DNA of 64,000 nt from assembly GCA_048499675.1 (NCBI GenBank), contig JASNZL010000003.1, positions 16,241-80,240 on the forward strand, written 5' to 3'. The DNA comes from Candidatus Zambryskiibacteriota bacterium. Lineage in GTDB: Bacteria; Patescibacteriota; Minisyncoccia; Phycocordibacterales; WO2-35-19. Below, piece by piece: positions 8,312-32,066 of the stretch; positions within the stretch are counted from its first letter, which is position 1, and every line of letters begins with the position of its first letter. The notes beneath the pieces are model-generated. The model was not told the DNA's origin. It worked only from the letters and a program-made list of their open reading frames with translations, and made no database searches. Both the position numbers and the translations under genes were made by a program.

Positions 8312-8701
8312 ATGGTTGAAGACAATAAAATTCAAGATTTTACTGATTTGCAAGCATGGCAGAATGCTCATAAACTAGTACTGAATGTTTATAAATTAAC
8401 AAATAAGTTTCCAAAATCAGAATCTTTTGGGCTCATATCTCAATTGCAACGAGCTTCTGTTTCAATTACCTCAAACATAGCTGAAGGTTTTGGCAGACAA
8501 ACTCTAAAAGAAAAAATCCAGTTTTACTACCAAGCACAGGGATCATTAACGGAAGTTAAAAATCAGCTTATTATCTCCAAAGATCTGGAATATATTTCCA
8601 AGGAAGAATTTAATGTTATAATGGAAATCCTTGTTGTTAGCCATAAACTACTTCAAGGTCTGCTTCGTAAAACCAAATCTTTCCTAAATCTTAAATCCTA
8701 A
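8312..8701 (+). CDS. Four-helix-bundle protein (the family often found in 23S rRNA intervening sequences)
   Basis: LQAWQNAHKLVLNVYKLTNKFPKSESFGLISQLQRASVSITSNIAEGFGR matches the TIGR02436-type pattern. No rRNA lies nearby. Confidence 0.7.
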   Translation: MVEDNKIQDFTDLQAWQNAHKLVLNVYKLTNKFPKSESFGLISQLQRASVSITSNIAEGFGRQTLKEKIQFYYQAQGSLTEVKNQLIISKDLEYISKEEFNVIMEILVVSHKLLQGLLRKTKSFLNLKS

Positions 8702-9691: not shown

Positions 9692-9897
9692 TAGACGCTA
9701 GAATATAAGTAACAAAAAAGTACAAAAATATACTGAGCATAAGAGAGTTCAGTAGAGATTCTACTGCATTCATAAAATTTTCGTACTTATTATTTTTTCT
9801 ATTTCTAAGAAAAAATATAATCCAAAAAAATATTAAAGAAAAGATAAAGTAATACATTTGTGATACTAAATAATAATGTGTGTTCTAAGACGTTTGA

Positions 9898-10200
9898 TTA
9901 TCCAAAAATTGTCATGAGTTTTAGTACCGCTAACCATCCATATTTTAAAACCAGAATGGCAACAAAACTATATACAATAAACAAAATAGATTGTTTTAGA
10001 ATATATGCCCTTGTTTGATTTTCTTTAATTAATTTCTTTATTAATATGTACAGAAAAAGTATAAATAAAATAAGGGTATGGATAAAATAAATTGGTAAAT
10101 GGTAGCTAATATATGGTAATAAAAGAGGTAGCACAAATATATACGAAAAAAGGTGTGTGAAGAAATACATCAAAGCTAGTTTATTCGTGTAATTGCTCAT
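9898..10200 (-). CDS. Small hydrophobic protein, hypothetical
   Basis: 100-aa ORF with three predicted TM segments. AT-rich, so it could be spurious. Confidence 0.3.
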   Translation of the reverse strand: MSNYTNKLALMYFFTHLFSYIFVLPLLLPYISYHLPIYFIHTLILFILFLYILIKKLIKENQTRAYILKQSILFIVYSFVAILVLKYGWLAVLKLMTIFG

Positions 10201-10225: not shown

Positions 10226-11026
10226 TTAAGCTATATTTTTTACAGAGTAGATATCATTTCTTATTTCATTAACATACTCTTCAACTAAAGAAGAAAGAGC
10301 TACCTTTTCTTCGCTCGAGAGTTTTATGAGGCCATCTCTCTCCAAATCATCATCTGAGTATCCATCTATAGCACAAGATAAATAATCTAAAAAAGCTTTA
10401 AAATAATTAGGGTTCCATAGATACATAGTTACTAATTCATTCGCATCTTCTACAGCTCGCACAGCTCTTTGTGAAGTAGGATCTGCCACAGTGTTATAAT
10501 CTGGAACGTTTCCCCACGTTGAAAAACCTCCATTATTTTGTTCTCTTTTTTTAAAACAAAAAAGCCATAAAATTGCATAATTTGAATCTATTTGATTATT
10601 CAAAACTCTTGTATACCATGCATTTGGGTTATCTGGACTTTCTTTTTTCATTAAGTATTCTTGATAAGCATGACTAACTTCATGTAAGAATCTATACTGA
10701 TCTGTTTCGTCTGGTTTTGGGAAAAGCGCCTCTTGTGTGTCAGGATCTATGCCTAGTCGAAATATATAATACTTGTATTGTTCTGCTGGCATTTCATTTT
10801 CAGCAATATAGATTTTATTATTTTCATATTTAAAACCCCATGAATTTCTCCACACATCAATGCCACGAATTATATTTTTATCAACCAAGAAATCACCTAA
10901 TTCTATAGGTAATTTGGATTTATCCGTATTAATTCTATCTGGTAAACTTAAGTAAGCGTGTAAACTCTCTTTCAACTCTAAATTACCGAGAGTATTTTGT
11001 TGTGAGTAATTAAATCTTTCTATCAT
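10226..11026 (-). CDS. Hypothetical protein with an HExxH motif (possible metallopeptidase)
   Basis: 266-aa ORF containing FLHEVSHAYQEY. No other recognisable domain. Confidence 0.4.
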   Translation of the reverse strand: MIERFNYSQQNTLGNLELKESLHAYLSLPDRINTDKSKLPIELGDFLVDKNIIRGIDVWRNSWGFKYENNKIYIAENEMPAEQYKYYIFRLGIDPDTQEALFPKPDETDQYRFLHEVSHAYQEYLMKKESPDNPNAWYTRVLNNQIDSNYAILWLFCFKKREQNNGGFSTWGNVPDYNTVADPTSQRAVRAVEDANELVTMYLWNPNYFKAFLDYLSCAIDGYSDDDLERDGLIKLSSEEKVALSSLVEEYVNEIRNDIYSVKNIA

Positions 11027-11053
11027 TAATCTTAAATCTTTATTCTGGAAGTT

Positions 11054-11569
11054 CTATCTTGGTGTCCCAAACATTTGGACAACAAATATGGCTTCCCTGC
11101 CTTTGTATATTCCTGAAGAAGTCGCTATACCTATCTCAGTATATTTTGGATTTACAATATTTAAAAAGTGCCCTCTTGAGTTCATCCATGCTCTATGGAC
11201 TTCATCAGAATCCAAAAAATTCACAGCTAGATTTTCACCAGCGTGTTTGTAATCATATCCAGCAAGCTCCATAAAATACCAAGGCCTCTTACCATCCGGT
11301 GTGTTGTGAGCAAAATAACCTTTTTCTGCCATATCGTTTGCCTTCAATTGGGCCGCTTCTACTAAAAGTGGGTTTACCGATAATTCACTCACATTTGCCT
11401 TTATTCTATCTACGTTGGCCAAATTAACAAGAACTGAGGCATATATAGCTCCTAACGAATCTAGTACAGAATACCTAAATGAGGGCATAATACCCGCAAG
11501 CAGAACCAAAAAGACCACTATTCCTATGCCTATTTTTAACTTCATAATCTCTTTATATTTTTTAGTCAT
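11054..11569 (-). CDS. CAP/SCP (YkwD-like) domain secreted protein
   Basis: N-terminal TM segment. YFAHNTPDGKRPW...HAGENLA...AWMNSRGHFLNIVNPKYTEIGIA are CAP-domain hallmarks. Confidence 0.6.
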   Translation of the reverse strand: MTKKYKEIMKLKIGIGIVVFLVLLAGIMPSFRYSVLDSLGAIYASVLVNLANVDRIKANVSELSVNPLLVEAAQLKANDMAEKGYFAHNTPDGKRPWYFMELAGYDYKHAGENLAVNFLDSDEVHRAWMNSRGHFLNIVNPKYTEIGIATSSGIYKGREAIFVVQMFGTPR

Positions 11570-11697: not shown

Positions 11698-12597
11698 ATG
11701 AAATTTAGTAAAAGTATAGCGATTGGAACTTTGGTTGTATCTATATTTGCTATGAGTTTTGGAACAGCGGGAGCTCAGACAACTAACGAGGCTCTTATGA
11801 ATCAAATTCAAACTCTATTACAGCAAATAAAAACTTTGCAAGATCAAATTGCAAATATTGATGCTCAGCAAAATCAATTAAGAACTGAGCTTCAAGAAAA
11901 ACTCAGACTTACAAGGTCATTAAGTCTAGGTATGACCAGCGAAGAAGTAAAATTACTTCAAGAAATACTTGCTACAGATCCAGACATATATCCAGAAGGT
12001 TTAGTTACGGGATATTTCGGTCCCCTAACAGAGAAGGCAGTTAAAAAATTTCAGGCTAAATTTGGAATAGAACAAGTAGGTAACGTTGGTCCTAAAACAT
12101 TAGCAAAGTTAAATACTTTACTTACTGAAGGAGCTGGGAATTCAGGTAAAGTACCACCAGGGCTTCTTATAGCTCCAGGAATTGCTAAAAAAATGGATAT
12201 GTCGCAATATGGTGCATTACCTAATCAAAAATTGCCACCCGGAATTGCTAAGAAGTTGGATGGGACCACACCATCAAATAACCAATCAACTACAACAGAC
12301 ACAACTGCTCCTGTAATAACTGGATTTACAACCTCTAACATAACTGCTTCGACATCAAAAGTTTCTTGGTCAACAAACGAGCTATCAACATCAACTTTGT
12401 GGTTTAGCTCAACAACACCAATCACATCTGGTTATTACATCACAAAGACTGGAAGTTGGAACACGACACACATATTTGAGCTAGATAACTTAAATGCTTC
12501 TACTACATACTATGTCAAAGTAGAAGTTTCAGATTTCTCTAATAACAAAAATACAAAAGAAGGTACTTTTGAGACATTAGCAGAAACAACTCAATAG
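11698..12597 (+). CDS. Secreted protein with a PG_binding_1 (peptidoglycan-binding) domain and a Thr/Ser-rich Ig/FN3-like C-terminal domain
   Basis: Signal peptide and coiled-coil. LSLGMTSEEVKLLQEIL...TGYFGPLTEKAVKKFQAKFGI matches the PG-binding repeat. Confidence 0.55.
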   Translation: MKFSKSIAIGTLVVSIFAMSFGTAGAQTTNEALMNQIQTLLQQIKTLQDQIANIDAQQNQLRTELQEKLRLTRSLSLGMTSEEVKLLQEILATDPDIYPEGLVTGYFGPLTEKAVKKFQAKFGIEQVGNVGPKTLAKLNTLLTEGAGNSGKVPPGLLIAPGIAKKMDMSQYGALPNQKLPPGIAKKLDGTTPSNNQSTTTDTTAPVITGFTTSNITASTSKVSWSTNELSTSTLWFSSTTPITSGYYITKTGSWNTTHIFELDNLNASTTYYVKVEVSDFSNNKNTKEGTFETLAETTQ

Positions 12598-12629
12598 AAC
12601 TTATTGACAAAAGGATAAAATAAAGAAAG

Positions 12630-12660
12630 GCGCCCCGAGAGTAGACTCTCGGGGCGCTTT
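12630..12660. terminator. Bidirectional intrinsic terminator between convergent genes
   Basis: gcgccccgagagtagactctcggggcgc hairpin flanked by A/T runs on both sides. Confidence 0.6.
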
Positions 12661-12663
12661 GGC

Positions 12664-13299
12664 TTAACGTCGCTTCTTGTGATGATAGAGGCCTGTAAGA
12701 GCGAGGCCTGCACCAAGGAGCAATGATGTCATGGGCTCAGGGATGGGTTCGGGAGGGCCGTACCCATTCGGTCGAGCAATGAAGTCCGTGGTGTTCGCCG
12801 ATAACAGGTCAACAAGACCCGCGTTGTAAGCGTACGCGTTCTGTCCGTCACGGGCATACATATTGCCCCAAACTGGAGCTCTGTTGCTTGTGAAAGAGAA
12901 CGTGTAGGGAGACCCACCCGAGAAGTTGAACTTAACTCCGTAGATGTCAACGGGTTGTTCGAAGTTCGGCGGAGTGAATGCCTCGTAGGTGCGCGGACCA
13001 TCAGCTGTACCGGTGCTTTCATTGGTGATACAGAGAGGGTCATCCCCACATCCATTCGTGAACTCAAGCAAGATGTGCGAAAGATCAGAACCTTCATGAG
13101 TAAAGGTGTAGGTGTAGGTGTAGACCCCAGCCTCCTCCATGATGTTCCAACTCATCGAAGCATTACCCTCCCAGTCGCCAAAACCAGCAAGTTGAGTCGA
13201 GCCACTCATAGTGGCTGACTTACCATAGACGATTGTAGCGCCACTCGCCATTGAAACGGCGAGAAAGAGCACAATGATGACACAGAGTGCATATCGCAT
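12664..13299 (-). CDS. PEP-CTERM domain secreted protein (GC-rich, compositionally foreign)
   Basis: Signal peptide. The C-terminus PEPIPEPMTSLLLGAGLALTGLYHHKKRR is a PEP motif, a TM segment and a basic tail. Its GC content is far above the flanks. Confidence 0.7.
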   Translation of the reverse strand: MRYALCVIIVLFLAVSMASGATIVYGKSATMSGSTQLAGFGDWEGNASMSWNIMEEAGVYTYTYTFTHEGSDLSHILLEFTNGCGDDPLCITNESTGTADGPRTYEAFTPPNFEQPVDIYGVKFNFSGGSPYTFSFTSNRAPVWGNMYARDGQNAYAYNAGLVDLLSANTTDFIARPNGYGPPEPIPEPMTSLLLGAGLALTGLYHHKKRR

Positions 13300-13411
13300 G
13301 TTTTTTCTCCGATTTTATTCAGCCCCAAAATGTGCTGTCTTAGGAATTTATATCATAAAGTTCATAAATTTCAACCTTTTTTGGTTATATCATGTGAATA
13401 CTTAATCATAT

Positions 13412-13436
13412 AAAAAATCCCGTACGGGATTTTTTA
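13412..13436. terminator. Bidirectional A/T-flanked hairpin terminator downstream of the 1182-aa gene
   Basis: aaaaaatcccgtacgggatttttt. Confidence 0.5.
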
Positions 13437-13459
13437 TATGATTAATATTTAACAAAGCA

Positions 13460-16400
13460 TTAAGGAAGTTGTGGTATAGGTGTTGTTGCAAGCATCTCTG
13501 GACACTTCAAGATATTAATCCACCTCTTTGTTGTTTTGTAGACATATCCTGTTGGACCATCTGTTGGTACTCCAGCTACTGCCCATGGAATAAGAGTTCC
13601 TGCTTCTTGGTGAGCTTGGAATTTTTTAACCATTTCAAATGTAATTGGTCCATAAAATCCTGTCACAGGGTTGTCTAATTCAAAGAATTGATTTAGGAAT
13701 ATCTGAAGTTTTCTCACTTCGTCAGGATTGTTCTTTGCACCAAACTTAATGTATTCCTTCAAGTATGGTTCACACATCAATCCCTCATCATCTGTTGATG
13801 CTCCCAATACTGATCCTTGAGAAGAAAACAACCCGCTAATATCTCTCCTTCTACCTCCTGGAGGTGTTGTTCCCCCAGTGTCATCTGTGAGTGTTTGCTG
13901 GATCTGTACATCATCTTCCTCATCATTGTTATCTTTTACACATTGACCCTCAACAAACGACTCTCCTTCTTTACAAACTAACTCAGGTAAGTCAGTAGTA
14001 TTGAATATTGAGATTGCTTCATCTTCTGAATCGATCACAACAGTGCCTCTACCTGATAAATAACTCCAACCGTCTTTCATAATTTCATCAGCTTCGTAAG
14101 TTCCGTAAGGTACATTTTCAAATACCACACAACCATTCTGTCCTGTTACACCAGCAAATCCTTCGTATATGTCTACGCTAAGATTACCGGAGTTATCTCC
14201 ATAGTTATCGTCTAGAATTCTGAGTGAAAGTACTCCAGAGGTTGAAGTTGAGTGAGCATATACATGATTTGGGTTAAAGATTGAACCCCAGTCTGTGTAA
14301 GATTCATTTACTTGTATGCCTAGCCAACCTTGAACTGATAGAGGAAAATCATTTACTCTAACCCAAGGAACATAAGGCCCACCATATACAGCATCACTTG
14401 GTAATCTCAAAGAATATGCAGCATCACTAGTTGAAGCTGTTGGGTCGCTTGGTCTGTATACATATGTGCCATTTGCAAGCAGAACGTAATTACCTTGTTC
14501 TAGAGCAATAGAATTATAATTATTTCCATCTGGATAAACACTAACGCTATCTTCCAAATCTCCCAAAAGCATAAGAGTCCATCCTGACAAAGGATTTTTA
14601 CTTTCATCATATTTACACATTGTAACAGTAGATACATTTGGACATGTTTCGTTCTCTACGATTATGTATGTATTTGAATTTAGGTTAGTAAGTGAAGGGT
14701 GCGTAGTAATCAAATCGGATTCCTCTGCTTCAGTTAATGTACTTCCGACTCTATACCCAACCAATCTAAACTTACCATTCTGACATTGTGCACCAATTGG
14801 CAAGACATTACTATTTCCGCCAGTGACTTCTTCCAAATTGAATATTGCGGGGGCATTTAGTGTTTCGCTTGTGTAAGAATAAGGATTATTAAGATTAATT
14901 TGACCACTTTCGTTTTTACCTAAGTAGCTCCATGAATAATTCATAGGGAAAGAATATTCTCCTTCAGCTATTTTTCCATCCAAATACTTATACACTTTAA
15001 CTTGAAGTTTTTCTGGTTCGTGAGGATTATCACCAGGACATAGTTTAGTATCTACATATAGAGCATAAATTACTCCAGCTGGATTAGTCTCATATGTACC
15101 TCCTTCTAATGCCCAGTTATGCACTGTAATCTCAATTGTATTTTCTCCATACACCAAAGCACTAGTCACATCATAATCAACAAACGAGCTAAAATTATTT
15201 TCATTTGTTGTAGAAGCTATCTCGCTTCCATTTATTATGACCTTATAGCTATTATCAGATGCAAGAGATAGAAGCGCGTCTGTTGGTACACCAGCCACGT
15301 TAAATGTTTTTGTAAATACTTTCACTTCATCTTGTGTTGGGTTTTGTACTTGCGCATCGCTCCACATCCAAATTGCATCGCTTGTTGTTGATACCCAATT
15401 TTGGTGTGTATAAGTTTCAACAGATGTTCCTTCGCCTACGCTATGATTTTCATCCGAGTAAAAGACCTGTGTTCCATATGTACAAGGGTCAGCTGGTTCA
15501 TTTTGACAGGTCAAACTTACATTATCCAAGAATGTACCCATTGAATCCTCAAGACCTCTATCTTCAAACTGAAGCCGCATAATTTCACCATTTCCAACTA
15601 AATCTACACTGTATTCTTGCCAATTCGTTTGATTAGTATTGTTTGTTAGTGTAAACGGTGAACCTAAAACATTATTATTTCCCCAAAGAACACCTAGAAC
15701 ATTATTATTGCTTAATGTATTTGGTCTAGCAGAGAATGAGAATTTTAATTCATAATTCTGATTCTCAATTGTTTCTATATCTTGCCAAATTTTTGTTGAC
15801 GCACCACTGCCTTGATTACTTGGACCATACCAATCACCATCAAGTTCGGCGTACTGAGAACCATGATTAGCAAGCCAGCTAAATACTCCTCTATGTAATT
15901 CTAATGAAGGAGTTACTTCTGTTGAATTCATCCAATCAAATGACCATCCGGGAACTGTTTGGAATATATTCCATGAATTATCACTGAGAACCGGAGCTTC
16001 AAAGCTTCCGTTTTCAATTAAGTTTATATTCGGATCGCAAATCAATCGTTCTACTACTTCAGGGCAAGCTTTGCTACCCGACGAAGCTGTAGCAGTCCTA
16101 TTGTTGCCATCAGGTCCTTTTAGTGACCATACGAGGTTACTTCCATCAAAATCAACCTGAAAAGCACTGTCATCAAATGGTGTCCTTCCTGGTCTTCCAT
16201 CAGGATGATTTGGTACAGAGTATAAGAAACTTGTAGTTTGTCCCTGATCCATACCAACCAAACCCCCGCCTGTTATTTTATTGTCATTACCAACTGGTAT
16301 GACAACCTCCATTTCATTTTTATTTTCGTATCCAAAATGAGCTGTGTATGTTCCATCATCATTATCAACTACACACTCCAAAATTGGACTGATTTTCTGA

Positions 16401-17008
16401 TCTGCTACTTTGGCAATCTTTGTGCCAGTAATTTTTACATTATCTATAAATAACTGGTCATTTCCGTGATCTAATTTTGCTTTAAATCTAATTTGAAAAT
16501 TTGGATTATCGTTTGCTAAATTACTTAATGGACCAAAAACTTTTTTTGTCCAAATATTAGTTTCTTGTCCATCTTCAAATTCATGTAGAGTATTCCAATT
16601 TGTACCATCAAACCAATCTACTTTTACATAATCTCCACTTTCAAAACCATTTGGATTGTTTGCACCTTCCTGATGCGGCATCTTGTACTCAAATTCTAAA
16701 TACACATTTTCGTAATTACTTGTTGATATTGATTTTCTTAGAATCTTATCGTTATTAACGCCTCCCGTTGGTCCTTCTACTCTTGCATAAAAGTCACCTG
16801 CATCACTACCTTTTTGCCATTTGTTATCAGCTTGTGTCCACTTATTTAGTGGTGGATTAGATTCAAATCCATCTTCAAAAATTGTTTGTTCGAGGGTAAT
16901 AGCCCCTGCTCTTAAAGGCAAAAACACTCCAACTTGGACCAAAAGAGAGAGTATTAAAAACATAGAAGAAAACTTTCTGAAATTTTCTCCAGATAATAAA
17001 TTTTTCAT
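13460..17008 (-). CDS. Giant secreted surface protein (1182 aa) with a C-terminal peptidoglycan-binding domain
   Basis: Signal peptide MKNLLSGENFRKFSSMFLILSLLVQVGVFLPLRAGA. A lectin/DUF642-like segment (NLIENGSFEAP...GWSFDW...HGSQYAELDG). C-terminal PG_binding_1 (FYGPITFEMVKKFQAHQEAGT). Confidence 0.7.
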   Translation of the reverse strand: MKNLLSGENFRKFSSMFLILSLLVQVGVFLPLRAGAITLEQTIFEDGFESNPPLNKWTQADNKWQKGSDAGDFYARVEGPTGGVNNDKILRKSISTSNYENVYLEFEYKMPHQEGANNPNGFESGDYVKVDWFDGTNWNTLHEFEDGQETNIWTKKVFGPLSNLANDNPNFQIRFKAKLDHGNDQLFIDNVKITGTKIAKVADQKISPILECVVDNDDGTYTAHFGYENKNEMEVVIPVGNDNKITGGGLVGMDQGQTTSFLYSVPNHPDGRPGRTPFDDSAFQVDFDGSNLVWSLKGPDGNNRTATASSGSKACPEVVERLICDPNINLIENGSFEAPVLSDNSWNIFQTVPGWSFDWMNSTEVTPSLELHRGVFSWLANHGSQYAELDGDWYGPSNQGSGASTKIWQDIETIENQNYELKFSFSARPNTLSNNNVLGVLWGNNNVLGSPFTLTNNTNQTNWQEYSVDLVGNGEIMRLQFEDRGLEDSMGTFLDNVSLTCQNEPADPCTYGTQVFYSDENHSVGEGTSVETYTHQNWVSTTSDAIWMWSDAQVQNPTQDEVKVFTKTFNVAGVPTDALLSLASDNSYKVIINGSEIASTTNENNFSSFVDYDVTSALVYGENTIEITVHNWALEGGTYETNPAGVIYALYVDTKLCPGDNPHEPEKLQVKVYKYLDGKIAEGEYSFPMNYSWSYLGKNESGQINLNNPYSYTSETLNAPAIFNLEEVTGGNSNVLPIGAQCQNGKFRLVGYRVGSTLTEAEESDLITTHPSLTNLNSNTYIIVENETCPNVSTVTMCKYDESKNPLSGWTLMLLGDLEDSVSVYPDGNNYNSIALEQGNYVLLANGTYVYRPSDPTASTSDAAYSLRLPSDAVYGGPYVPWVRVNDFPLSVQGWLGIQVNESYTDWGSIFNPNHVYAHSTSTSGVLSLRILDDNYGDNSGNLSVDIYEGFAGVTGQNGCVVFENVPYGTYEADEIMKDGWSYLSGRGTVVIDSEDEAISIFNTTDLPELVCKEGESFVEGQCVKDNNDEEDDVQIQQTLTDDTGGTTPPGGRRRDISGLFSSQGSVLGASTDDEGLMCEPYLKEYIKFGAKNNPDEVRKLQIFLNQFFELDNPVTGFYGPITFEMVKKFQAHQEAGTLIPWAVAGVPTDGPTGYVYKTTKRWINILKCPEMLATTPIPQLP

Positions 17009-17162
17009 AGTAATAAATTATTAATAACGAAATCGAATAAATTTTAATAATGAATTTTGTCCGGTTTCGCCACTCTCCCCAAGCAAATGCTTTTGCCCAC
17101 TTCATAAGGCGACCAATAATAGAAGTAGACTCAATAAGGGATACAAAATAATTTATCCCCCA

Positions 17163-18158
17163 GATACCTTTGAAGTAGGACAGTTATAATTAATTTTTAG
17201 CAAAAATTAAATTTTAATTGTCATGAAAAAGAAATATTGTCATTTGTCGTTTGAAGAGAGATTTGCAATTGAAGTGATGTATCGAAAAGGCCGGAGATCT
17301 GCCCATTGCAGTTTTTGGATCGTAGTCCAAATACAGTGAGCCGAGAGATACGGAAACATAGTGTTAATGGTGCATATGAGGCCAGGAAAGCTAAGCAAAA
17401 ATCATTAGCAGAAAGATGGAGAGCAAAAGCTCAATGTCTCAAAGTAGCAATGAACAGTTTCCTTTGCGTTTTCGTTGAAGAGAAACTTCAAAACAAGTGG
17501 TCACCAAAACAAATTAGTGGGTATTTGAAGAGAGAGTACGGCATCATTTGCTCTAGCAAAGCCATATACAAATTTGCTGAGAGCCGTGGATTAGATCACT
17601 TGCTTTTCTGGGGCTGGAACAACATGAAAGCTTGTCGCAAGAGATACAAATGGAAAACACCCAAAGATGGAAGGAAATATATTGGACAAAGACCAGAAAG
17701 AAAAGAAGTTGGTCATCTAGAGATGGACTTCATTGTCTCCAAAGAAAGTTCTTGGGTTCTCTTGGTAGTAGTTGATCGTTTTGCTAAAAAAACTTGGGTG
17801 AGGAAAACACTCATTACAGAAAACGACACTATTCGTGCCTCTTATGTCCATGGGATTGTTTTAAAGTCGATCACCACGGACAATGATTCAGCTATTCAAG
17901 ATGCTGGAGTATGAGATCTCCTCAACACTGTCATATATTTTACACATCCATACCATTCTTGGGAAAAGGGATTAGTGGAGAATACTAACCGATGGATCAG
18001 ATGTTTTGTACCTAAAAGGAGAAATATCGAGTCAGTGACTGAAGAAGAATTGAAAGGGATTCACACCTTCTTTGAACGACCGACCGAGAGAATGTATTGG
18101 ATTTAGATTACCAACAAGTTATTATTATGAGTTAACATCTGTCCTACTTGAGGGGTAG
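17163..18158 (+). mobile_element. Degenerate IS30-family insertion sequence (about 1 kb) with terminal inverted repeats
   Basis: The left end ...cctttgAAGTAGGACAGtt (17172-17183) and the right end ...aaCTGTCCTACTTgagggg (18139-18150) form inverted repeats. They flank a frameshifted IS30 transposase. Confidence 0.6.
17223..18106 (+). pseudogene. IS30-family transposase, disrupted by multiple frameshifts
   Basis: Three frames carry N-terminal HTH (MKKKYCHLSFEERFAIEVMYRKG), middle (WSPKQISGYLKREYG...GHLEMDFIVSK) and C-terminal (HPYHSWEKGLVENTNRWIRCFVPKRRNIES) segments typical of IS30 DDE transposases. Confidence 0.65.
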
Positions 18159-18278
18159 CGGGAGGTATTTGTACTAGCTATAATAATAGTAGTATTGTCA
18201 AGATTGTCAAGTTGAAACTGTTCTAAAACTGTTTACAAATATATGATTTATTTTGGCAATTGTTCATCAATTATTAGC

Positions 18279-19361
18279 TTACTCTATAATGATACTTTCT
18301 CCATTTTGAAATACGTAAAATTTTATATTTGTATTTACTCTATCCATCATCAAGGTTTTAATCCTATCACTTGGAGCAAAAAATGTTTCAGTAGAAAGTT
18401 TAAAAGTTCCAAAGTGAGTACCCATCGCGGTCTTTACACCAAGCTCTTTATACATTAAGACGGCATCATCTGGAGAAGTATGCATCTCTTTCATAAAACT
18501 TCTTGGTTCATATGCTCCTATTGGAAGCAAAGCAAACCTAAACCCTTCGGGATACTTTTCTTTTATCTGATTTACAAAAGGTCCATATCCTGTGTCACCA
18601 GCAAAATATATATCACCATTATTGGTTTTAACAACAAAACCACCCCATAGTGTTTTATTTCTATCTGATATAGCTCTAGCTGAAAAATGTTGAGCTGGAA
18701 CTGAGTGAATTTTTATTTGCTCATTATATTTGATCTCATCCCACCAATCCATATCAATTACATTTTTTATTCCCCTTTTTTCTAAATATTTTTTATTTCC
18801 TAAGTGGGTATAAATTACGGGATTATACTTTTGTTCCAGTTTTTTTAAAGTATCTATATCCATATGGTCATAGTGATTGTGAGATAAGAGGACGATGTCT
18901 ATTTTTGGTAAATCGTCAAATTTTATCCCAGCCTCAGTGTACCTCTTGGGTCCAACAAAAGAAAAAGGACTAGCTCGTTTAGCCCAAACAGGGTCAGTCA
19001 AAATATTTAAACCCTCAGTTTGAATTAAAACAGTATTGTGATTTACAAAGGTAGCAACAATTGTATTACCCTCTACTATTTCTTCTGGAACAGAATATTT
19101 TTGCTCGTAGCCAGTAATTTCCCAATCTTTATTTTTTCTCATCTCTTTCCAGAAAGTAAAAAAAGATGGCCTATCTTTTGTTTTATTTTCTTCTATAATC
19201 GAAGTTTCTGATTCTTGAATATTATAAAATTTATTTCCATCAAAATTTGATTTGAGTTCTCTACCTTCGGTATCAAATGTTTTAGATGCGAGAGTGTAAT
19301 AAATTATTATTCCAACAATTACAAATAATATTAGAAATCCAAATATTAATCTCAAAATCAT
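18279..19361 (-). CDS. Metallo-beta-lactamase-fold hydrolase (NAPE-PLD-like) with an N-terminal membrane anchor
   Basis: LLSHNHYDHMD (the H.H.DH zinc motif) and a downstream GTHFGTF. An N-terminal TM helix. Confidence 0.65.
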   Translation of the reverse strand: MILRLIFGFLILFVIVGIIIYYTLASKTFDTEGRELKSNFDGNKFYNIQESETSIIEENKTKDRPSFFTFWKEMRKNKDWEITGYEQKYSVPEEIVEGNTIVATFVNHNTVLIQTEGLNILTDPVWAKRASPFSFVGPKRYTEAGIKFDDLPKIDIVLLSHNHYDHMDIDTLKKLEQKYNPVIYTHLGNKKYLEKRGIKNVIDMDWWDEIKYNEQIKIHSVPAQHFSARAISDRNKTLWGGFVVKTNNGDIYFAGDTGYGPFVNQIKEKYPEGFRFALLPIGAYEPRSFMKEMHTSPDDAVLMYKELGVKTAMGTHFGTFKLSTETFFAPSDRIKTLMMDRVNTNIKFYVFQNGESIIIE

Positions 19362-19385
19362 TGCTACATTCTATCAAACAATTTA

Positions 19386-19425
19386 TTTAAAAGAAATCCG
19401 CGTGGGAGCCGAAGCTTCCACGCGG
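19386..19425 (-). terminator. Intrinsic terminator of a PEP-CTERM gene (part of the duplicated 131-bp block)
   Basis: ccgcgtgg-gagccgaagctt-ccacgcgg hairpin, followed on the minus strand by a T-rich run. Confidence 0.5.
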
Positions 19426-19446
19426 AATGGTTTTGCAGAGTAGCCG

Positions 19447-20091
19447 TTAGCTCCTGCGGGAGGCACGCTTGTGCCTGATGTAGCCGAGGCCAAGGAGGCC
19501 AAGGCCCATGAGGGCGACTGTGGTGGGCTCGGGGACTGATTCAGCCGTGCCCGACCAAATGGCGCCGGTCGGCCCTCCACCGAGTTGGTAAACCTCCATC
19601 ACGAGAGTGTTAGTCCCCTGCTGGAGATACGGCGTGAGAAGGAGGTTCATGAACTCTCCCGGCTCACACGCGATGGGCCCGTCGGCGCAAGCCCCATCCA
19701 TTGTAAAATTGGCCGGCTTGAGGAGCGTGCCGTTGAGCCAGACCGCCATTGTGTCATCGGCCCCGAAGGTGGCCGACCCGCTGTTGACCGCGCTCGGCAG
19801 GAAAAACTGCTGAGTGAATGTCATTGTGGCAGGCCCACTGCTCCAGTTGGGTAGGACAACACCGTTGTAGCCCGTATTTGGATACGCAGAGACCCAACTC
19901 GCCCCAGCGAGCGTATCCCAGGCCGGATGAGGGGTAATGTTGTAAACATTACCCGTGTTCGACGTCGCACTTCCGTCGCCGGAAGCAAACGTCACCGTCG
20001 CGCCAATGGCGGGCATCATACAGACCACCAGAAGCAGAATCATCATCGAAACAACTTTCATTTTATCTCCTTTTCCCCTCCGTTGATCCAA
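19447..20091 (-). CDS. PEP-CTERM domain secreted protein (GC-rich)
   Basis: C-terminus VPEPTTVALMGLGLLGLGYIRHKRASRRS. The true start is probably the internal MKVVSMMILLLVV signal peptide near 20061. Confidence 0.7.
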   Translation of the reverse strand: MDQRRGKGDKMKVVSMMILLLVVCMMPAIGATVTFASGDGSATSNTGNVYNITPHPAWDTLAGASWVSAYPNTGYNGVVLPNWSSGPATMTFTQQFFLPSAVNSGSATFGADDTMAVWLNGTLLKPANFTMDGACADGPIACEPGEFMNLLLTPYLQQGTNTLVMEVYQLGGGPTGAIWSGTAESVPEPTTVALMGLGLLGLGYIRHKRASRRS

Positions 20092-20243
20092 AAGGGAGAT
20101 TTTGTGATTTCTTATAAAACAACAAAATCTCCCCTTTGGATATATAAAAAGAACTGAGATACTTTATAACATAATGTGAAATATTATGCAAGTATACTTA
20201 TAAAAAAGCATAAATTAAATAATTGTGTTTAATCTAGTCAATT

Positions 20244-20281
20244 TAAAAGAAATCCGCGTGGGAGCCGAAGCTTCCACGCGG
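20244..20281 (-). terminator. Second copy of the same terminator hairpin
   Basis: Identical sequence to 19386-19425. Confidence 0.5.
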
Positions 20282-20302
20282 AATGGTTTTGCAGAGTAGC
20301 CG

Positions 20303-21100
20303 TTAGCTCCTGCGGGAGGCACGCTTGTGCCTGATGTAGCCGAGGCCAAGGAGGCCAAGGCCCATGAGGGCCATTGTGGCAGGTTCGGGGATCGGCTCTG
20401 TTTGCCTGAAAAGAGCAAATTGATTCCCGTTGGCGAGGGAATCAAATGTTGTATCGGGATTTTGGAGCAATAATCCAAAGTTGCCGTTCGGGCTGAACTC
20501 GGCGAATGCTCCTGGCATCGCCGAACCACCGAAGAGCAAATTGAGTGTGTTTGGCGAGTTTTGTTCAAACCAATACACACTAGTTTGATCGCTCCACGCG
20601 GCGACCTCGAGAAGCAACTGCGATGAGGTGTTGCCATTACTGAAAAGGAGTACTGAGTTGTCGGCCGACGTGCCGACGCCCCAATACTCGAGGTTCGATA
20701 CAGAAATGGCAGGACTGTACGGATTCGCACCGTAGACTCCAGTCCCTGTCATAAAATATCCAATATTCCACCCATCTCCCCCATCAAAACTGGAGTTATT
20801 CCAGTATGGAGTACCGCTCGTGTTAGGCACAACCATTGGTTGCCACGAGCCCGCGCCCACGACGGACAACGATGCTCCAGTCAACGAAAATGCTGAGTCG
20901 TTATAGTCGCGATCACCTCCAGGGAGAGGGATGTCCTCAACCCCAATCCAGATCGTTCCAGCCGAAGCCGAAACAATCAAACAAAAAAACAGAACCATCA
21001 GAAGCTTCATTTTTTTCTCCATTTCTCCTCGGTTCACTAGTGTGTGTGAGGGGAAATTTGGCCACTTGTTGAAAAATGAGCAAATTTCCCCCTCCATCAA
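20303..21100 (-). CDS. PEP-CTERM domain secreted protein (GC-rich paralog)
   Basis: C-terminus IPEPATMALMGLGLLGLGYIRHKRASRRS. The likely start is the internal MKLLMVLFFCLIVSASA signal peptide. Its 3' end is 100% identical to that of the neighbouring paralog. Confidence 0.7.
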   Translation of the reverse strand: MMEGEICSFFNKWPNFPSHTLVNRGEMEKKMKLLMVLFFCLIVSASAGTIWIGVEDIPLPGGDRDYNDSAFSLTGASLSVVGAGSWQPMVVPNTSGTPYWNNSSFDGGDGWNIGYFMTGTGVYGANPYSPAISVSNLEYWGVGTSADNSVLLFSNGNTSSQLLLEVAAWSDQTSVYWFEQNSPNTLNLLFGGSAMPGAFAEFSPNGNFGLLLQNPDTTFDSLANGNQFALFRQTEPIPEPATMALMGLGLLGLGYIRHKRASRRS

Positions 21101-21326
21101 ATATTATAAAAGAGCTGGTTTTTTATTGATATACCATAATTATAATAATTTTGCAAGTATTAAAATCATAAATTTTGCTTGTATTATCCTATATTATTAA
21201 AATATTCGAGTAAATATGTTATATTTCAATCAATGCTCGCTTAGTCCCGACAATCTTGTGCAACAAGATGTCGGGATCCCGACTCCAAATTGTTACTCAA
21301 TTGGACGTCGGGACTCAGTAAATGTA

Positions 21327-21586
21327 ATGCCATATGTATATATATTACAAAATAATAAGGGTAAGTATTACATTGGCAGTACAACAAATATTGATAAGAG
21401 AATAAATCACCACAAAAAAGGTTACAGTATTTCAACTAAAAAATGGGCCATGTGGAATTAGTATTAAAACAAGAATATAATACTTTAAGCGAAGCCAGAA
21501 TTATTGAAATGAAATTGAAAAAACTAAAGAGACATGATTATATTAAGAAAATTGTAGAGAATGGGTACATTAAAATGCGCGCTTAG
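21327..21586 (+). pseudogene. Small GIY-YIG (URI-domain) nuclease family gene, apparently frameshifted at a poly-A tract, with its 3' end overlapping tRNA-Val
   Basis: MPYVYILQNNKGKYYIGSTTNIDKRINHHKKGYSISTKKW fits GIY-YIG motifs A and B. The conserved C-terminal half (ELVLKQEYNTLSEARIIEMKLKKLKRHDY) continues in the +1 frame after the aaaaaa at about 21435. The stop codon lies inside the tRNA. Confidence 0.5.
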
Positions 21587-21650
21587 CTCAGTTGGTTAGA
21601 GCGACTCATTGACGTTGAGTAGGCCGGGGATTCGAATTCCTCAGCGCGCA
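21577..21650 (+). tRNA. tRNA-Val (anticodon GAC)
   Basis: Hand-folded cloverleaf. Acceptor gcgcgct/agcgcgc, D arm gctc-agttggtta-gagc, anticodon arm actca-ttGACgt-tgagt, T arm gggga-ttcgaat-tcctc, discriminator A. CCA is not encoded. Confidence 0.85.
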
Positions 21651-21741
21651 CACTTCGACTTCTTTTGCAAAACTCGTTCGGTGTAAACAATGAAAGCTTT
21701 ATAAAAAGACAAATGGCTCACGCTTCGCGCGAGCCAAATAA

Positions 21742-22026
21742 TCACTGAAAATCACCACGACTTCTGTCGCGAGAATTTTGTGAGATTGTTCCCTTCTTGG
21801 GTTTGCCCAGAGTACTTCCTGCCCCCATGCCCGACCTGCCAATTTCTTGGCGTTGCGGTGGGCAAAAAAGAATGTTCCCAGTGGATATGGCGACATACTT
21901 TACACCGTCAATTATTCTGACCGTTTTTTGACCGTCAGTTGCAACGATTTGTTGCCTCTGAGGTCCGGGTTGGTTTAATAAATTAATACCGTTCCCAACA
22001 GATCGGTTGCCTTTTTTATCGGACAT
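21742..22026 (-). CDS. Hypothetical small protein (94 aa) in a GC-rich patch next to tRNA-Val
   Basis: Strong SD (agaggag) 7 nt upstream of the ATG. No recognisable domain. The C-terminal half is low-complexity and basic. Confidence 0.3.
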   Translation of the reverse strand: MSDKKGNRSVGNGINLLNQPGPQRQQIVATDGQKTVRIIDGVKYVAISTGNILFCPPQRQEIGRSGMGAGSTLGKPKKGTISQNSRDRSRGDFQ

Positions 22027-24175: not shown

Positions 24176-24360
24176 ACTTTACAAACCCTCAAAACTATTG
24201 ACAAATAACGTATAATTTGCTACAATGTTTTTATCGACATTGCCTTGTGCTTGTCGGGTCGCTCGTGCGCTCTTTCTCGGAGTCATATTGCATAGAATTG
24301 GAATTTTCCGGTTTTGCAATCCATGTCGGGAGCGAGAACTTTCTACGAAAGGAAAGAAAA

Positions 24361-24813
24361 ATGAGAACGAATGATGAGTACATTGTTAACTTGGTGAAGC
24401 AAGTCGTCGGCAACTCGACGATCTCCGGATTTAAAAGTCTGAGGACCCTCCAACCGGACGCTTGGTTCCTTTTCCTGTACCACAGGATCAAAGCCAAAGT
24501 CTTGAAAATGAACGATGAGACTTTGGGAAGAATCTGTGGTTATGGGCACAACAAAAACTTCAGTGAACCGATTAATTCCTCAGTCGGGTTCATTTTCAAG
24601 ACTGGCATCGAGGAAGTACAATCGCACCCTCTGGATCTCAACCTTTCTGGTCGTGAGCTCCTCGAGGAGATCGCGATCAGGACGATTGTAGCGGTCACCT
24701 GCGACATCGTCATACAGGAAGCGTACGAAGAAATTCGCCGCACCGAGCAGGGGAATGAATACCAGTTTGATAGCGTCATGGCCAAATACCTGCATTCTGG
24801 CCGCCGGTTGTAG
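24361..24813 (+). CDS. Hypothetical protein, first gene of a GC-rich four-gene islet
   Basis: SD aaaggaaag upstream of MRTNDEYIVN. No recognisable domain. GC is roughly 50% against about 33% in the flanks. Confidence 0.4.
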   Translation: MRTNDEYIVNLVKQVVGNSTISGFKSLRTLQPDAWFLFLYHRIKAKVLKMNDETLGRICGYGHNKNFSEPINSSVGFIFKTGIEEVQSHPLDLNLSGRELLEEIAIRTIVAVTCDIVIQEAYEEIRRTEQGNEYQFDSVMAKYLHSGRRL

Positions 24814-24849
24814 AAGTTCTTTCAATATTGGGCCAACACTTGATTGGCC

Positions 24850-24890
24850 CTTCCACCAGATAAAATTTGAAAAAGTTTTATGCGGTGGGA
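24850..24890 (+). repeat. 41-bp hairpin repeat cttccaccagataaaatttgaaaaagttttatgcggtggga (copy 1)
   Basis: Exact direct repeat of 25494-25534. Forms a ccacc...ggtgg / ataaaa...ttttat stem. Sits just upstream of the next gene. Confidence 0.6.
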
Positions 24891-24985
24891 GGAAACTTCC
24901 AAATCCGGCCAGTGCGCAGGCCTTTAAAACATTTGCCACTTTTTCCGAATGTTGCAAACTCGGAATCAAAAGAAAGGAACCCCTC

Positions 24986-25456
24986 ATGATTGAGAATCTG
25001 TTCCATGCAAAGATTGTTCTTTCAAACGAGGAGTGTCAGACTCTCTCCTCAATTCACCCGATGTATAAATTGCCAAAAGAGATCGGGGTAATCACTTTCC
25101 TTGGTGTCGAGGAAGGAGAATACTATAGTTTTAACACCGTACATCTGCTGATTCGTTTTGATTCATTTGCCAAGCAAGAGAAGGCAATGATGGAAGAGGT
25201 CATCACCCGCGTATTCGGAAAAGGTCGTGGGGAGATGCTTAACAACAACAGCGAACAGCGGGAGTACTCCTACAATGCGATCATCAAAATGTCGCTAAAA
25301 TACCCCCTCCGAAACCCGAAAAAGTTAATCAAGAAGAGGGCGGGAATGTTCGCAAAAGAAATCCTGAAATGGCGACAAGAACAGATTCGTCGTCACAAGA
25401 AGGAAGAGGAACAGGACTGGCAAGAGATGAGGCGTGACATGCCCGAATGGGTATAA
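24986..25456 (+). CDS. Hypothetical protein, GC-rich islet gene 2
   Basis: SD aaaggaa upstream of MIENLFHAKIV. The hairpin agcaggagag-ttta-ctctcctgct follows. Confidence 0.4.
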   Translation: MIENLFHAKIVLSNEECQTLSSIHPMYKLPKEIGVITFLGVEEGEYYSFNTVHLLIRFDSFAKQEKAMMEEVITRVFGKGRGEMLNNNSEQREYSYNAIIKMSLKYPLRNPKKLIKKRAGMFAKEILKWRQEQIRRHKKEEEQDWQEMRRDMPEWV

Positions 25457-25493
25457 ACGGCGATGAGCCTAGCAGGAGAGTTTACTCTCCTGC

Positions 25494-25534
25494 TTCCACC
25501 AGATAAAATTTGAAAAAGTTTTATGCGGTGGGAG
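25494..25534 (+). repeat. 41-bp hairpin repeat (copy 2)
   Basis: Identical to 24850-24890. Precedes the membrane-protein gene. Confidence 0.6.
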
Positions 25535-25585
25535 TAGTCCCAAAATCCCTCCGTCAAGAGACGGAGGTTAAAAAAGGAGTTCTTT

Positions 25586-25912: not shown

Positions 25913-25920
25913 AGGAGAAT

Positions 25921-32000: not shown

Positions 32001-32066
32001 CCAAAGTTCCGACAAAAGCCGGATTGCAGGTTGTTCTATGAGATTGTCTTCGTTAAAGGGGTTCAT
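29022..32066 (-). CDS. hsdR: Type I restriction enzyme R subunit
   Basis: 1014 aa with an HsdR N-terminal domain, SF2 helicase motifs (Walker A, then DEAHRS) and a long coiled C-terminus. Confidence 0.9.

Follow-up and report, generated by a model that had tools for sequence, protein, structure and literature searches.

In the 64,000-nt stretch of DNA analysed here (hereafter the window), which belongs to a Patescibacteria (CPR) bacterium, three minus-strand genes encode small signal-peptide proteins whose C-termini consist of a PEP motif, a hydrophobic helix and basic residues. The first, g1 (12664–13299), encodes 211 aa with the tail IPEP...HHKKRR; g2 (19447–20061) encodes 204 aa, with a jelly-roll (CBM35/GH2-N-like) domain ahead of its PEP-CTERM tail; and g3 (20303–21010) encodes 235 aa, with a PEP-CTERM tail behind a beta-rich body and the DUF4114-like motif GGDRDYND on the N-terminal side. 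The g3 open reading frame itself reaches 21100, and public annotation gives the protein 264 aa. An earlier note on this DNA had recognized three PEP-CTERM proteins, and their C-termini score 17.6 (g1), 24.7 (g2) and 21.9 bits (g3) against TIGR02595, all above the cut-off of 16 bits. The Pfam model PF07589 (cut-off 20.7) also accepts g2 (30.9) and g3 (31.2), but not g1 (13.7). The motif is well conserved in the family alignments: P187 and P189 are invariant and E188 is kept in at least 90% of sequences in A9 (g1), P177, E178 and P179 are each kept in at least 90% in A1, and P208 and E209 are invariant in A5. Judged by these sequence models, the PEP-CTERM assignment of all three is correct.

The bodies ahead of the tails differ. 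An AlphaFold2 model of g2 (pLDDT 86.5) retrieves CBM35 and GH2 sugar-binding domains in Foldseek searches (E 3e-5 to 1e-3), and the body is a CBM35/GH2-N-like jelly roll, hence probably a glycan-binding adhesin. In g3, the DUF4114-type motif sits on a probable beta-sandwich; the g3 model has low confidence (pLDDT 69.7) and its fold search gave no significant match. The g1 body is beta-rich.

The three genes lie among neighbours that the earlier note had listed correctly. Between g1 and g2 are found the gene for an 1182-aa secreted surface protein (13460–17008, minus strand; DUF642/choice-of-anchor C, GH2_N-like jelly roll, SpaA and PG_binding_1 domains), which has host composition and is syntenic in the related loci L011 and L015; a decayed IS30 element (17157–18165, plus strand) with 27-nt terminal inverted repeats and a stop inside the transposase frame, missing from L015; and an MBL-fold hydrolase of host composition with an N-terminal TM segment (18279–19361, minus strand). 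Beyond g3 follow a GIY-YIG gene broken by a premature stop or a frameshift (21329–21576, plus strand) and tRNA-Val(GAC) (21577–21651, plus strand), the start of a segment of about 21 kb that is absent from one related genome (L011 and L012). This segment, a defence island (21.7–43.0 kb), runs from tRNA-Val to tRNA-Ser and encodes Type I R-M, AbiEii, AAA_15, RadC and T5orf172. A bAvd-like/23S-IVP protein is encoded at 8312–8701, and its gene is syntenic in L011.

The region from 12.6 to 21.1 kb had been taken for an accessory island, a view that does not hold, since the order from the CAP gene to g3 (CAP gene, PG-binding gene, g1, large surface protein, MBL gene, g3) is collinear with L011 in blastn alignments. 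The syntenic g1 orthologue lies at L011 16604–17239 and that of g3 at L011 10001–10711, the latter with 79% amino acid identity. On these alignments, three pieces vary: the g2 unit, the IS30 remnant and the defence island.

Each of g1, g2 and g3 is one monocistronic cassette. The g1 cassette ends in an intrinsic terminator (12630–12657, minus strand) with a 12-bp GC-rich stem and a T-run, kept in L011. On the same strand, g2 is preceded by a 5' leader hairpin (20086–20141), after which comes a purine-rich Shine–Dalgarno region (GGAGGGGAAAAGGAG), and g3 by a leader hairpin at 21048–21095 (GGAGGGGGAAATTTG...CAAATTTCCCCTC). The structure of the g2 leader hairpin is kept across CPR homologues, with compensatory changes in 9–11 of 22 pairs. 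Further upstream of g2 is a putative promoter motif that it has in common with g3 (ATACTTGCA-N17-TATAAA; 20165–20195, minus strand), the second copy of this shared motif lying upstream of g3 (21130–21160, minus strand). A promoter scan showed no enrichment over shuffled sequence, and we regard the promoters and transcription start of the cassettes as predictions from their sequence. The leader and putative promoter regions of all three genes are AT-rich and common to other CPR copies. We propose that each gene is a self-contained expression cassette from which a Parcubacteria-like CPR bacterium makes a small cell-surface protein. In order, a cassette would comprise an AT-rich sigma-70-like promoter, a leader hairpin, a strong purine-rich Shine–Dalgarno sequence, the Sec signal peptide, a GC-rich body, the PEP-CTERM tail (PEP, TM helix, basic residues) and a GC-rich intrinsic terminator.

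The 3' ends of g2 (copy B, 19385–19535, minus strand) and g3 (copy A, 20241–20391, minus strand) are 97% identical over 151 nt, and the longest exact block, 19385–19515 and 20241–20371, is the 131-nt identity that had been reported earlier. It holds the last 22 sense codons (66 nt coding) and the stop codon, then 62 nt of 3' UTR that include a terminator hairpin, whose 13-bp stem is capped by a UUCG loop and accompanied by a T-run. The window contains exactly two copies of this hairpin, against none expected from shuffles, and the hairpin is kept in L015 with a compensatory change. Between the two copies of tail and terminator lies a g2 unit of 856 bp, made up of leader, body, tail and terminator; the MBL gene is immediately downstream of it. 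The site next to that gene holds only g3 in L011 and L012 and only g2 in L015, the MBL gene coming directly after g3 in L012 and directly after g2 in L015; in 3'-end alignments, the DNA downstream of the g3 terminator in L012 is that found downstream of the g2 terminator in the window. On the 5' side, window 20057–20174, upstream of g2, matches L011 9887–10005, upstream of g3 (blastn), and the region upstream of the window's g3 resembles that of the g3 homologue in L013. In L007, g2, g3 and a third PEP-CTERM gene stand in tandem, all GC-rich.

These comparisons of tail, terminator and leader with L011, L012, L013 and L015, added to the 131-nt block, uphold the earlier suggestion of recombination at the 3' end. 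Leader, body and tail plus terminator are exchanged between cassettes, with 5' leaders swapped between g2-type and g3-type bodies, and the 131-nt identity probably arose when conserved cassette ends underwent homologous recombination or gene conversion. A hairpin, albeit imperfect, at the end of each cassette and varying content at one site would also fit a site-specific cassette system (integron attC-like) or the target of a diversity-generating retroelement (DGR), for which the bAvd-like/23S-IVP protein might be cited. We consider this very improbable: 66 nt of the shared block are coding and its terminator is a canonical stem with a T-run, the two copies are 100% identical whereas a DGR should leave mismatches specific to adenines, neither integrase nor reverse transcriptase was found among those ORFs of the window that were annotated, and the 23S-IVP gene is syntenic in L011. 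If homologous exchange is responsible, a small recombining cassette array would vary the surface-protein repertoire.

The cassettes also stand out in composition, as the earlier note had observed. GC content is 0.52 in g1, 0.60 in g2 and 0.52 in g3 against 0.359 for the window, and GC3 is 0.56, 0.71 and 0.58 against 0.18–0.41 (mostly 0.2–0.35) in other genes. At the gene borders, a 200-bp GC profile steps from 0.24 to 0.64, and four-fold sites (A.15, C.34, G.25, T.25) depart from those of host genes (A.41, C.12, G.09, T.39). A separate GC-rich patch of three ORFs (GC3 0.52–0.66) lies at 24.2–25.9 kb. Taken alone, the contrast could mean that assembly joined GC-rich reads from a second organism to an AT-rich contig, a chimera that the earlier note had kept in view. 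This is for practical purposes excluded: the same junctions recur in independent assemblies, with a Logan contig 100% identical over 1134 bp spanning both g1 junctions and the same arrangement in JGI and Logan contigs of other samples, and the borders of the three separate GC-rich segments coincide with start codons and terminators.

The earlier note had concluded from this composition that the genes were acquired horizontally. The foreign compositional signature stands, but the conclusion is too simple, as the families are GC-rich in AT-rich CPR relatives too, in at least 10 other CPR genomic contexts, and simple recent gene transfer does not explain this. Recent arrival of a GC-rich accessory island, still unameliorated, from a GC-rich donor would account for the sharp GC and GC3 contrast, the distant relatives in GC-rich genomes, the IS30 remnant, tRNA-Val and defence island close by, and the highest GC3 coinciding with presence/absence polymorphism in g2. 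Several observations nonetheless make it improbable. g1 and g3 are equally GC-rich at the same syntenic positions in L011 and L012, where synonymous sites of housekeeping genes are near saturation; the syntenic g2 orthologue in L015 has diverged as much as host genes, with GC4 of about 0.70 in both copies; host-composition genes, themselves syntenic in relatives, separate the three; and their AT-rich leaders and promoters are shared with other CPR copies.

Persistence of high GC can be put in numbers from 60–230 four-fold sites in each comparison, with a two-state model and orthology taken to be vertical. Host four-fold sites are 0.78–0.94 saturated for strong/weak base class (window against L011 or L015). 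With g2 itself at 0.90 saturation and GC4 of 0.72 in the window and 0.69 in L015, their common ancestor would have needed GC4 above 1 had it evolved under the mutation bias of the host. Every pairwise comparison of g2 and g3 homologues is saturated, yet GC4 stays at 0.5–0.75. In the comparison with L011, g1 and g3 may yet be compatible with a very GC-rich ancestor (GC4 about 0.94), and GC3 of 0.43 in the L010 copy indicates that decay towards host composition is possible. High GC in these families is not a sign of recent arrival, and some force maintains it; candidates are mRNA selection, GC-biased conversion at recombination-prone cassettes and fast cassette exchange among CPR populations.

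All close homologues (at least 45% identity) for which flanking DNA was available sat on AT-rich CPR contigs (Zambryskibacteria, 'Patescibacteria group' and Saccharibacteria), where they are GC-rich too, and none was on a viral contig; their loci carry FtsZ/FtsA, DnaB, HtpX and GroEL. GC-rich bacteria supplied distant relatives (24–40% identity). In a metagenome scan, relatives at 24–38% identity had gene GC equal to flank GC (0.54–0.65), whereas CPR-type copies had gene GC of 0.58–0.60 in flanks of 0.37–0.46. The g2 profile gathered 83 clusters at E<=1e-30, of which the organism-named one is Bryobacteraceae, and the most distant g1 relative comes from Desulfobacca. As distant relatives occur there at matching composition, we suggest that the families arose in GC-rich, exosortase-bearing diderm bacteria and entered CPR long ago, to be found now across several CPR lineages, typically adjoining a surface-structure neighbourhood (TasA/camelysin-like proteins, SipW-like peptidase, LTD, CAP). 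The pattern of composition thus points to an ancient foreign origin, followed by an unexplained maintenance of high GC.

The prevailing view that CPR bacteria have no outer membrane bears on the fate of the tag. We found no exosortase or archaeosortase in about 190 kb of related CPR flanks, nor in the window, as the earlier note had stated; the only window ORFs with at least four hydrophobic segments are VKOR (47147–47737) and HtpX (43143–44021). The PEP-CTERM region might then be a relic, a mere C-terminal membrane anchor (TM helix and basic stop-transfer) in a presumably monoderm host, in line with a literature search that found no link between exosortases and Patescibacteria and with Haft et al. 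(2006; PMC1569441), who found PEP-CTERM solely where an outer membrane is present. We think this possible but the less probable fate, because P-E-P is (nearly) invariant in three families diverged to 45–50% identity within CPR, which is unexpected of a mere anchor, and because exosortase genes usually lie remote from their substrates, so that absence from the flanks says little. Strict conservation across diverged copies suggests instead that the tag is still recognized; an exosortase-like enzyme, with its gene in another part of the genome, would then process it. As a whole, recombining GC-rich cassettes of ancient foreign origin, with GC maintained since, are probably the best explanation of the locus.

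The cassettes resemble the PEP-CTERM/exosortase system (EpsH, XrtA; Haft et al., 2006; PMC1569441) in the PEP motif, TM helix, basic cluster and signal peptide, in several copies per genome with diverse small beta-rich bodies, and in single-gene operons behind long intergenic regions with a shared upstream element. That element appears here to be a transcribed hairpin behind a sigma-70-like promoter, unlike the sigma-54/PrsR site of proteobacterial PEP-CTERM genes. Other differences are the compositional strangeness of the genes in their own genome, the missing exosortase in window and flanks, and a CPR/Patescibacteria host generally held to be without an outer membrane. The NCBIfam subfamilies PepA flocculation (NF033554), THxN (NF038125), QFxxD (NF038120) and EDSAP-1 (NF041538) match weakly (E 1e-7 to 1e-6), mostly over the C-terminal tag, and membership of the g1–g3 bodies was rejected at about 30 bits against curated cut-offs of 80–100.

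The g2 model superposes on CBM35 (target-normalized TM about 0.55, E about 1e-4) and the protein recalls GH2_N in its motif GADDT...V.LNG and a weak NCBIfam LacZ match, but sequence identity is 10–20%, and the domain stands alone on a membrane tag, outside any enzyme. Under the amelioration model of Lawrence and Ochman, atypical GC and codon usage are said to mark foreign origin and to decay towards the host; g1–g3 carry the mark, but the decay is absent despite saturated synonymous divergence among CPR copies.

Gene conversion or cassette exchange among surface-protein paralogues is known from pilE/pilS of Neisseria and vls of Borrelia, where, as here, conserved ends surround variable bodies and recombination homogenizes the ends and changes the repertoire. 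The present cassettes differ in being complete, presumably expressed genes with no silent donors, and in bodies of unrelated folds, so that whole modules (leader, body, tail) rather than variable segments would be exchanged.

Three minus-strand genes of the window encode proteins that end in the PEP-CTERM signal, and the earlier note's call on all three holds. The ORFs g1 (12664-13299), g2 (19447-20061, starting at the ATG downstream of a GGAGGGGAAAAGGAG Shine-Dalgarno sequence) and g3 (20303-21010, in an ORF reaching to 21100 and with a public gene call of 264 aa) close in translation with Pro-Glu-Pro, then a hydrophobic transmembrane (TM) helix and then a basic tail; by eye, each protein also has a hydrophobic N-terminal segment and an AxA-like site (SGA/T, IGA/T, ASA/G), together forming putative signal peptides. 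At the extreme C-terminus, g1, g2 and g3 score 17.6, 24.7 and 21.9 bits with TIGR02595 (cut-off 16), the model on which that call had been made to depend, and g2 and g3 pass the Pfam model PF07589 (30.9 and 31.2 bits; cut-off 20.7), with g1 falling below it at 13.7 bits. Whole-protein matches to the named PEP-CTERM subfamilies (PepA, THxN, QFxxD, EDSAP-1, XDP1 and others) fail, the best reaching 30-32 bits against cut-offs of 80-125. Genes of this class occur in several copies per genome, as single-gene operons with long intergenic regions upstream (PMC1569441); in keeping with this, the window has three copies within 8.4 kb, and none shares its upstream region or its terminator with another. 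In alignments of three families from the Candidate Phyla Radiation (CPR; A1, A5 and A9) the PEP residues are invariant or at least 90% conserved, and this near-invariance argues that the tag is still recognised in these bacteria. A further CPR family bears a variant tag (VPES/VPEP, TM helix, KYLRW...) in two GC-rich genes, one at 10760-11422 of a Zambryskibacteria contig (L001) and the other at 11977-12717 of a Saccharibacteria MAG (L007), the latter with no match to the Pfam PEP-CTERM model.

No exosortase-like ORF occurs in the 64-kb window, again as first described, and only VKOR and HtpX have at least four hydrophobic segments. Nor was an exosortase found in the approximately 190 kb of flanks from 11 CPR loci; the candidates in related loci were instead identified as YibE/F, UbiA and a Na/Ca exchanger. 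The window contains no EPS locus. CPR bacteria are generally described as being without an outer membrane. In the literature that we searched, no paper links exosortase or PEP-CTERM to Patescibacteria. PEP-CTERM has been reported only in outer-membrane bacteria with EPS genes, always alongside EpsH (Haft et al., 2006; PMC1569441). An assembly chimera, which would place foreign genes artificially in this contig, is very unlikely, since the junctions recur in independent assemblies: a Logan contig is 100% identical to 12298-13431, spanning both g1 junctions, and the junctions of g3 and of g2 with the neighbouring MBL-fold hydrolase gene (MBL) recur in JGI and Logan contigs assembled from other samples.

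For g2, AlphaFold2 gives a confident model (pLDDT 86.5), a beta jelly roll followed by a C-terminal helix at residues 179-203. In the PDB it best matches CBM35 modules and the N-terminal sugar-binding domains of GH2 glycosidases (E 3e-5 to 1e-3), and on these matches g2 is probably a glycan-binding domain on a membrane tag. The g3 protein bears a DUF4114-like GGDRDYND motif, and its model, of low confidence, drew no significant match in a fold search; g1 has no Pfam or NCBIfam family match beyond the tag. In many CPR loci, PEP-CTERM genes adjoin TasA/camelysin-like proteins, a SipW-like peptidase, and LTD, PurAcPhosph_N and CAP proteins, which looks like a surface-structure neighbourhood. Near the Zambryskibacteria PEP-CTERM genes there is also a defence cluster (L001/L002, 14379-20654) with an AEP-TOTE helicase, Fic, and a CBASS-like pair of SMODS and SAVED genes.

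A word-indexed search of 5.8 billion proteins returned 18 matches for g2, 16 for g3 and 19 for g1, and all matches of at least 45% identity with retrievable flanks lie on AT-rich contigs with CPR hallmarks. The names in the titles of these records are Candidatus Zambryskibacteria, 'Patescibacteria group bacterium' and a Saccharibacteria MAG. Judging from these CPR relatives and from collinearity with them, we infer that the host of the window is a Parcubacteria-like CPR bacterium. A profile search without the word index shows g2 to belong to a large family, with 83 clusters at E<=1e-30 and 729 at E<=1e-10, and the closest matches in that search are CPR copies; the sole named organism among the 20 matches looked up is a member of the Bryobacteraceae (Acidobacteriota), whose PEP-CTERM protein is 40% identical. 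Scanning metagenomes with the g3 family gave 61 loci, in which the CPR-type copies have a GC of 0.58-0.60 within flanks of 0.37-0.46. The g3 relatives at 24-38% identity are nearly all in contigs of 0.54-0.65 GC, where gene GC equals flank GC, and in these the DUF4114-like motif stands beside the tag rather than N-terminally. The most distant relative of g1 is from Desulfobacca acetoxidans. Taken together, the Bryobacteraceae match, the composition-matched distant relatives of g3 and the Desulfobacca relative of g1 suggest that the genes probably came from GC-rich diderm bacteria that bear exosortases. A scan of viral contigs with the g2 family gave no match and so lends no support to a phage vector.

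The surroundings are those given in the earlier note, namely a decayed IS30, MBL, a 1182-aa surface protein, an interrupted GIY-YIG gene and tRNA-Val, and its reading of this stretch as an accessory island does not survive comparison with relatives. Two JGI contigs, L011 and L012, are collinear with the window (amino acid identity 98% for DnaB, 93% for TrxB, 94% for CAP and 85% for HtpX). The order in L011 is HtpX, two ORFs (102 and 518 aa) with tRNA-Val, g3, MBL fragments, pieces of the large surface protein, g1, a PG-binding protein, CAP, TrxB and FtsZ, which matches that of the window; g1, g3 and their neighbours are therefore no fresh island. The L011 copies of g3 and g1 are 79-80% identical to those of the window and equally GC-rich (GC at third codon positions, GC3, of 0.55 and 0.61). 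Between FtsZ and TrxB, at 8312-8701 (+), lies a gene for a four-helix protein resembling 23S-rRNA-intervening-sequence and bAvd proteins, a fragment of which also occurs in L011; no reverse transcriptase was seen near it.

What varies between the window and its relatives is the g2 unit, the IS30 remnant and approximately 21 kb at 21.7-43.0 kb. This last segment (21700-43060), between tRNA-Val and tRNA-Ser, is absent from L011 and L012 and is a defence island, the truly variable part of the region. Its Type I restriction-modification genes (HsdR 29022-32066, HsdS 33557-34762, HsdM 36877-38439) are interleaved with an AAA_15 ATPase (32076-33551) and AbiEii (34874-36145), and it also carries SppA, MsrA, MsrB, RadC, a T5orf172/GIY-YIG protein, GrpB and a methyltransferase. 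Within it, at 24200-26400, is a second GC-rich patch (GC 0.44-0.53) with no long clean ORF; the ORFs at 24217-24813, 24755-25456 and 25586-25912 have a GC3 of 0.52-0.66 and no Pfam or NCBIfam match, and the last of them encodes three TM segments. The patch may represent decayed foreign DNA or else an element that is not yet recognised. At the border of the defence island, tRNA-Val (window 21577-21651; L011 7908-7987) is inverted relative to its neighbours in the comparison with L011 and L012, and the adjoining small GC-rich ORF at 21742-22026 (-) keeps its collinear orientation nonetheless; this 94-aa ORF (GC ~0.47, good RBS) is kept in L011 (7536-7844) and has no family match. The GIY-YIG gene at 21329-21576 (+; UPF0213-like) stops after 44 codons and resumes in another frame, reflecting either a pseudogene or a sequencing frameshift.

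The three genes stand out in composition just as had been noticed: their GC is 0.52-0.60 in a window of 0.359, and their GC3 is 0.56-0.71 against 0.18-0.41 (mostly 0.2-0.35) in other window genes, the exception being the ORF patch at 24.2-25.9 kb (0.52-0.66). A 200-bp GC profile shifts at the gene borders, and at 4-fold sites of g1-g3 G and C are each raised approximately threefold. The earlier note took this composition to imply horizontal acquisition. Either each lineage imported its copy recently, or high GC is actively maintained. We compared these through amelioration at 4-fold sites, using a two-state model (strong versus weak bases) that is simple, draws on few sites and assumes orthology, and under which host genes of the window and L011 are approximately 0.8 saturated, g1 and g3 have a GC at 4-fold sites (GC4) of 0.50-0.57, and the ancestor would have needed a GC4 of approximately 0.94, which is barely possible. 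Between the window and the related locus L015, host genes are 0.86-0.94 saturated; the two g2 copies, themselves 0.90 saturated, have GC4 values of 0.72 and 0.69, and their common ancestor would under host bias require a GC4 above 1. All pairs of g2 and g3 homologues (seven and five contexts) give 4-fold saturations of 0.75-1.2 at a GC4 of 0.5-0.75, compared with a GC4 of 0.18-0.49, mostly 0.2-0.35, for CAP and TrxB, and only the copy on L010 (GC3 0.43) approaches host composition. Against recent import, then, the syntenic orthologues are as diverged as host genes, and no GC-rich reservoir of close homologues was found. Given saturated synonymous sites in orthologues that are still GC-rich, the composition is more probably an ancient foreign signature than a mark of recent arrival. 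If high GC is actively maintained, the candidate forces would be selection on mRNA (hairpins at both the 5' and 3' ends would suit a long-lived message), GC-biased conversion at recombination-prone cassettes, or rapid exchange among CPR populations. On the Zambryskibacteria contig L001, an isolated gene unrelated to PEP-CTERM (12919-13995) is also GC-rich (0.53 versus 0.40), and GC-rich islands of about the size of one gene may be more widespread in CPR genomes.

The identical 3' end that had been noted on g2 and g3 is exact: 19385-19515 equals 20241-20371, the longest exact block being 131 nt within 151 nt of 97% identity. Inside it are 22 codons with their stop codon, then a hairpin (13 bp, UUCG loop) and a T-run. 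Two copies of this hairpin, and no more, are present in the window and none in shuffled sequences, and its stem has a compensatory change in L015. PEP-CTERM genes here and in related loci have an AT-rich region upstream and a strong GC-rich terminator downstream, and across these loci the DNA of the tail is more conserved than the gene bodies. The cassettes (sigma-70-like promoter, leader hairpin, putative signal peptide, GC-rich body, tag, terminator) are arranged differently among relatives. In L012 the g3 tail and hairpin run straight into the sequence that follows the g2 hairpin in the window and leads into MBL; L015 has the order g2, MBL, large protein, with no g3 immediately upstream and no IS30; and the Saccharibacteria MAG has homologues of g2 and g3 and a third PEP-CTERM gene in tandem. 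The sequence preceding window g2 (20057-20174) has its homologue upstream of L011 g3 (9887-10005), and the window g3 leader resembles that of the g3 homologue on L013. Read from these sequences, modules are shuffled between cassettes, and their junctions fall at the RBS/ATG and the PEP tail. The window g3 tail has about a dozen differences from that of L011 g3, yet is identical to that of window g2, and a protein record for a g3 variant at 95% identity (P0019) already bears the RHKRASRRS tail. Given swapped leaders, conserved tails and the presence or absence of the g2 unit, the 131-nt identity most plausibly reflects homologous recombination or gene conversion acting on the conserved ends of cassettes, in keeping with the gene conversion or duplication first proposed. 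The 856-bp g2 unit could have been inserted or retained between duplicated ends, or the g2 and g3 tails could have been homogenised afterwards. Integron gene cassettes were rejected, as the hairpin has a T-run and sits in a block that includes coding sequence, with no integrase among the annotated ORFs, and so were targets of a diversity-generating retroelement, as the copies are 100% identical over 131 nt and the annotated ORFs include no reverse transcriptase.

The 5' ends are structured as well. Genes of the g2 and g3 types are preceded by a hairpin of 20-25 bp (core GGGAAAUUU...AAAUUUCCC) that lies between a sigma-70-like promoter and a purine-rich Shine-Dalgarno sequence (window 20086-20141 and 21048-21095; L011 9930-9990; also L013, L015, L016 and L017), and 9-11 of its 22 pairs have compensatory changes (seven leaders, five contigs). 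It matches no known riboswitch or leader family: Rfam at the gathering threshold gave only two tRNAs, and the E-value search only spurious miRNA matches on the g2 leader hairpin. A role as mRNA stabiliser or translational regulator is possible. When several of the leaders are folded as single sequences, pyrimidine-rich sequence upstream of the hairpin is paired with the Shine-Dalgarno region. This sequestering outer helix finds no support in the consensus fold, and we claim the central hairpin alone. Several leaders have, in our reading, a 'AGTTCTTT'-like box approximately 10-15 nt upstream of the hairpin. A sigma-54 promoter was rejected by inspection, there being no GG-N10-GC element upstream of the TTGCA box.

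The observation in the earlier note is confirmed and its interpretation supported in part. Tentatively, and as something we regard as possible rather than likely, we suggest that CPR bacteria have exosortase-type or functionally equivalent C-terminal sorting of lectin-like surface proteins, and that a gene-specific force holds the genes at approximately 55-60% GC in genomes of 35-40% GC. This force could be selection for highly structured, long-lived mRNA bracketed by 5' and 3' hairpins, or GC-biased conversion at a recombining array, and the GC-rich state would not be a leftover of recent transfer. If so, PEP-CTERM sorting would reach the CPR, which no searched paper connects with it, and these bacteria would have an unrecognised exosortase-like enzyme, or the tag would work differently there. 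The proteins would be plausible glycan-binding adhesins on an episymbiont surface, and hence candidates for host attachment. The genes would provide a clean natural case of atypical GC outlasting saturated synonymous divergence, challenging the routine equation of GC-atypical with recently transferred, and a tractable bacterial system in which GC-biased gene conversion could be tested against selection for mRNA composition. In relation to known systems, the proteins are new members of the PEP-CTERM group, and what is new is their setting: a CPR host in which no exosortase was seen, and cassettes whose modules recombine and whose high GC persists on an evolutionary time scale.
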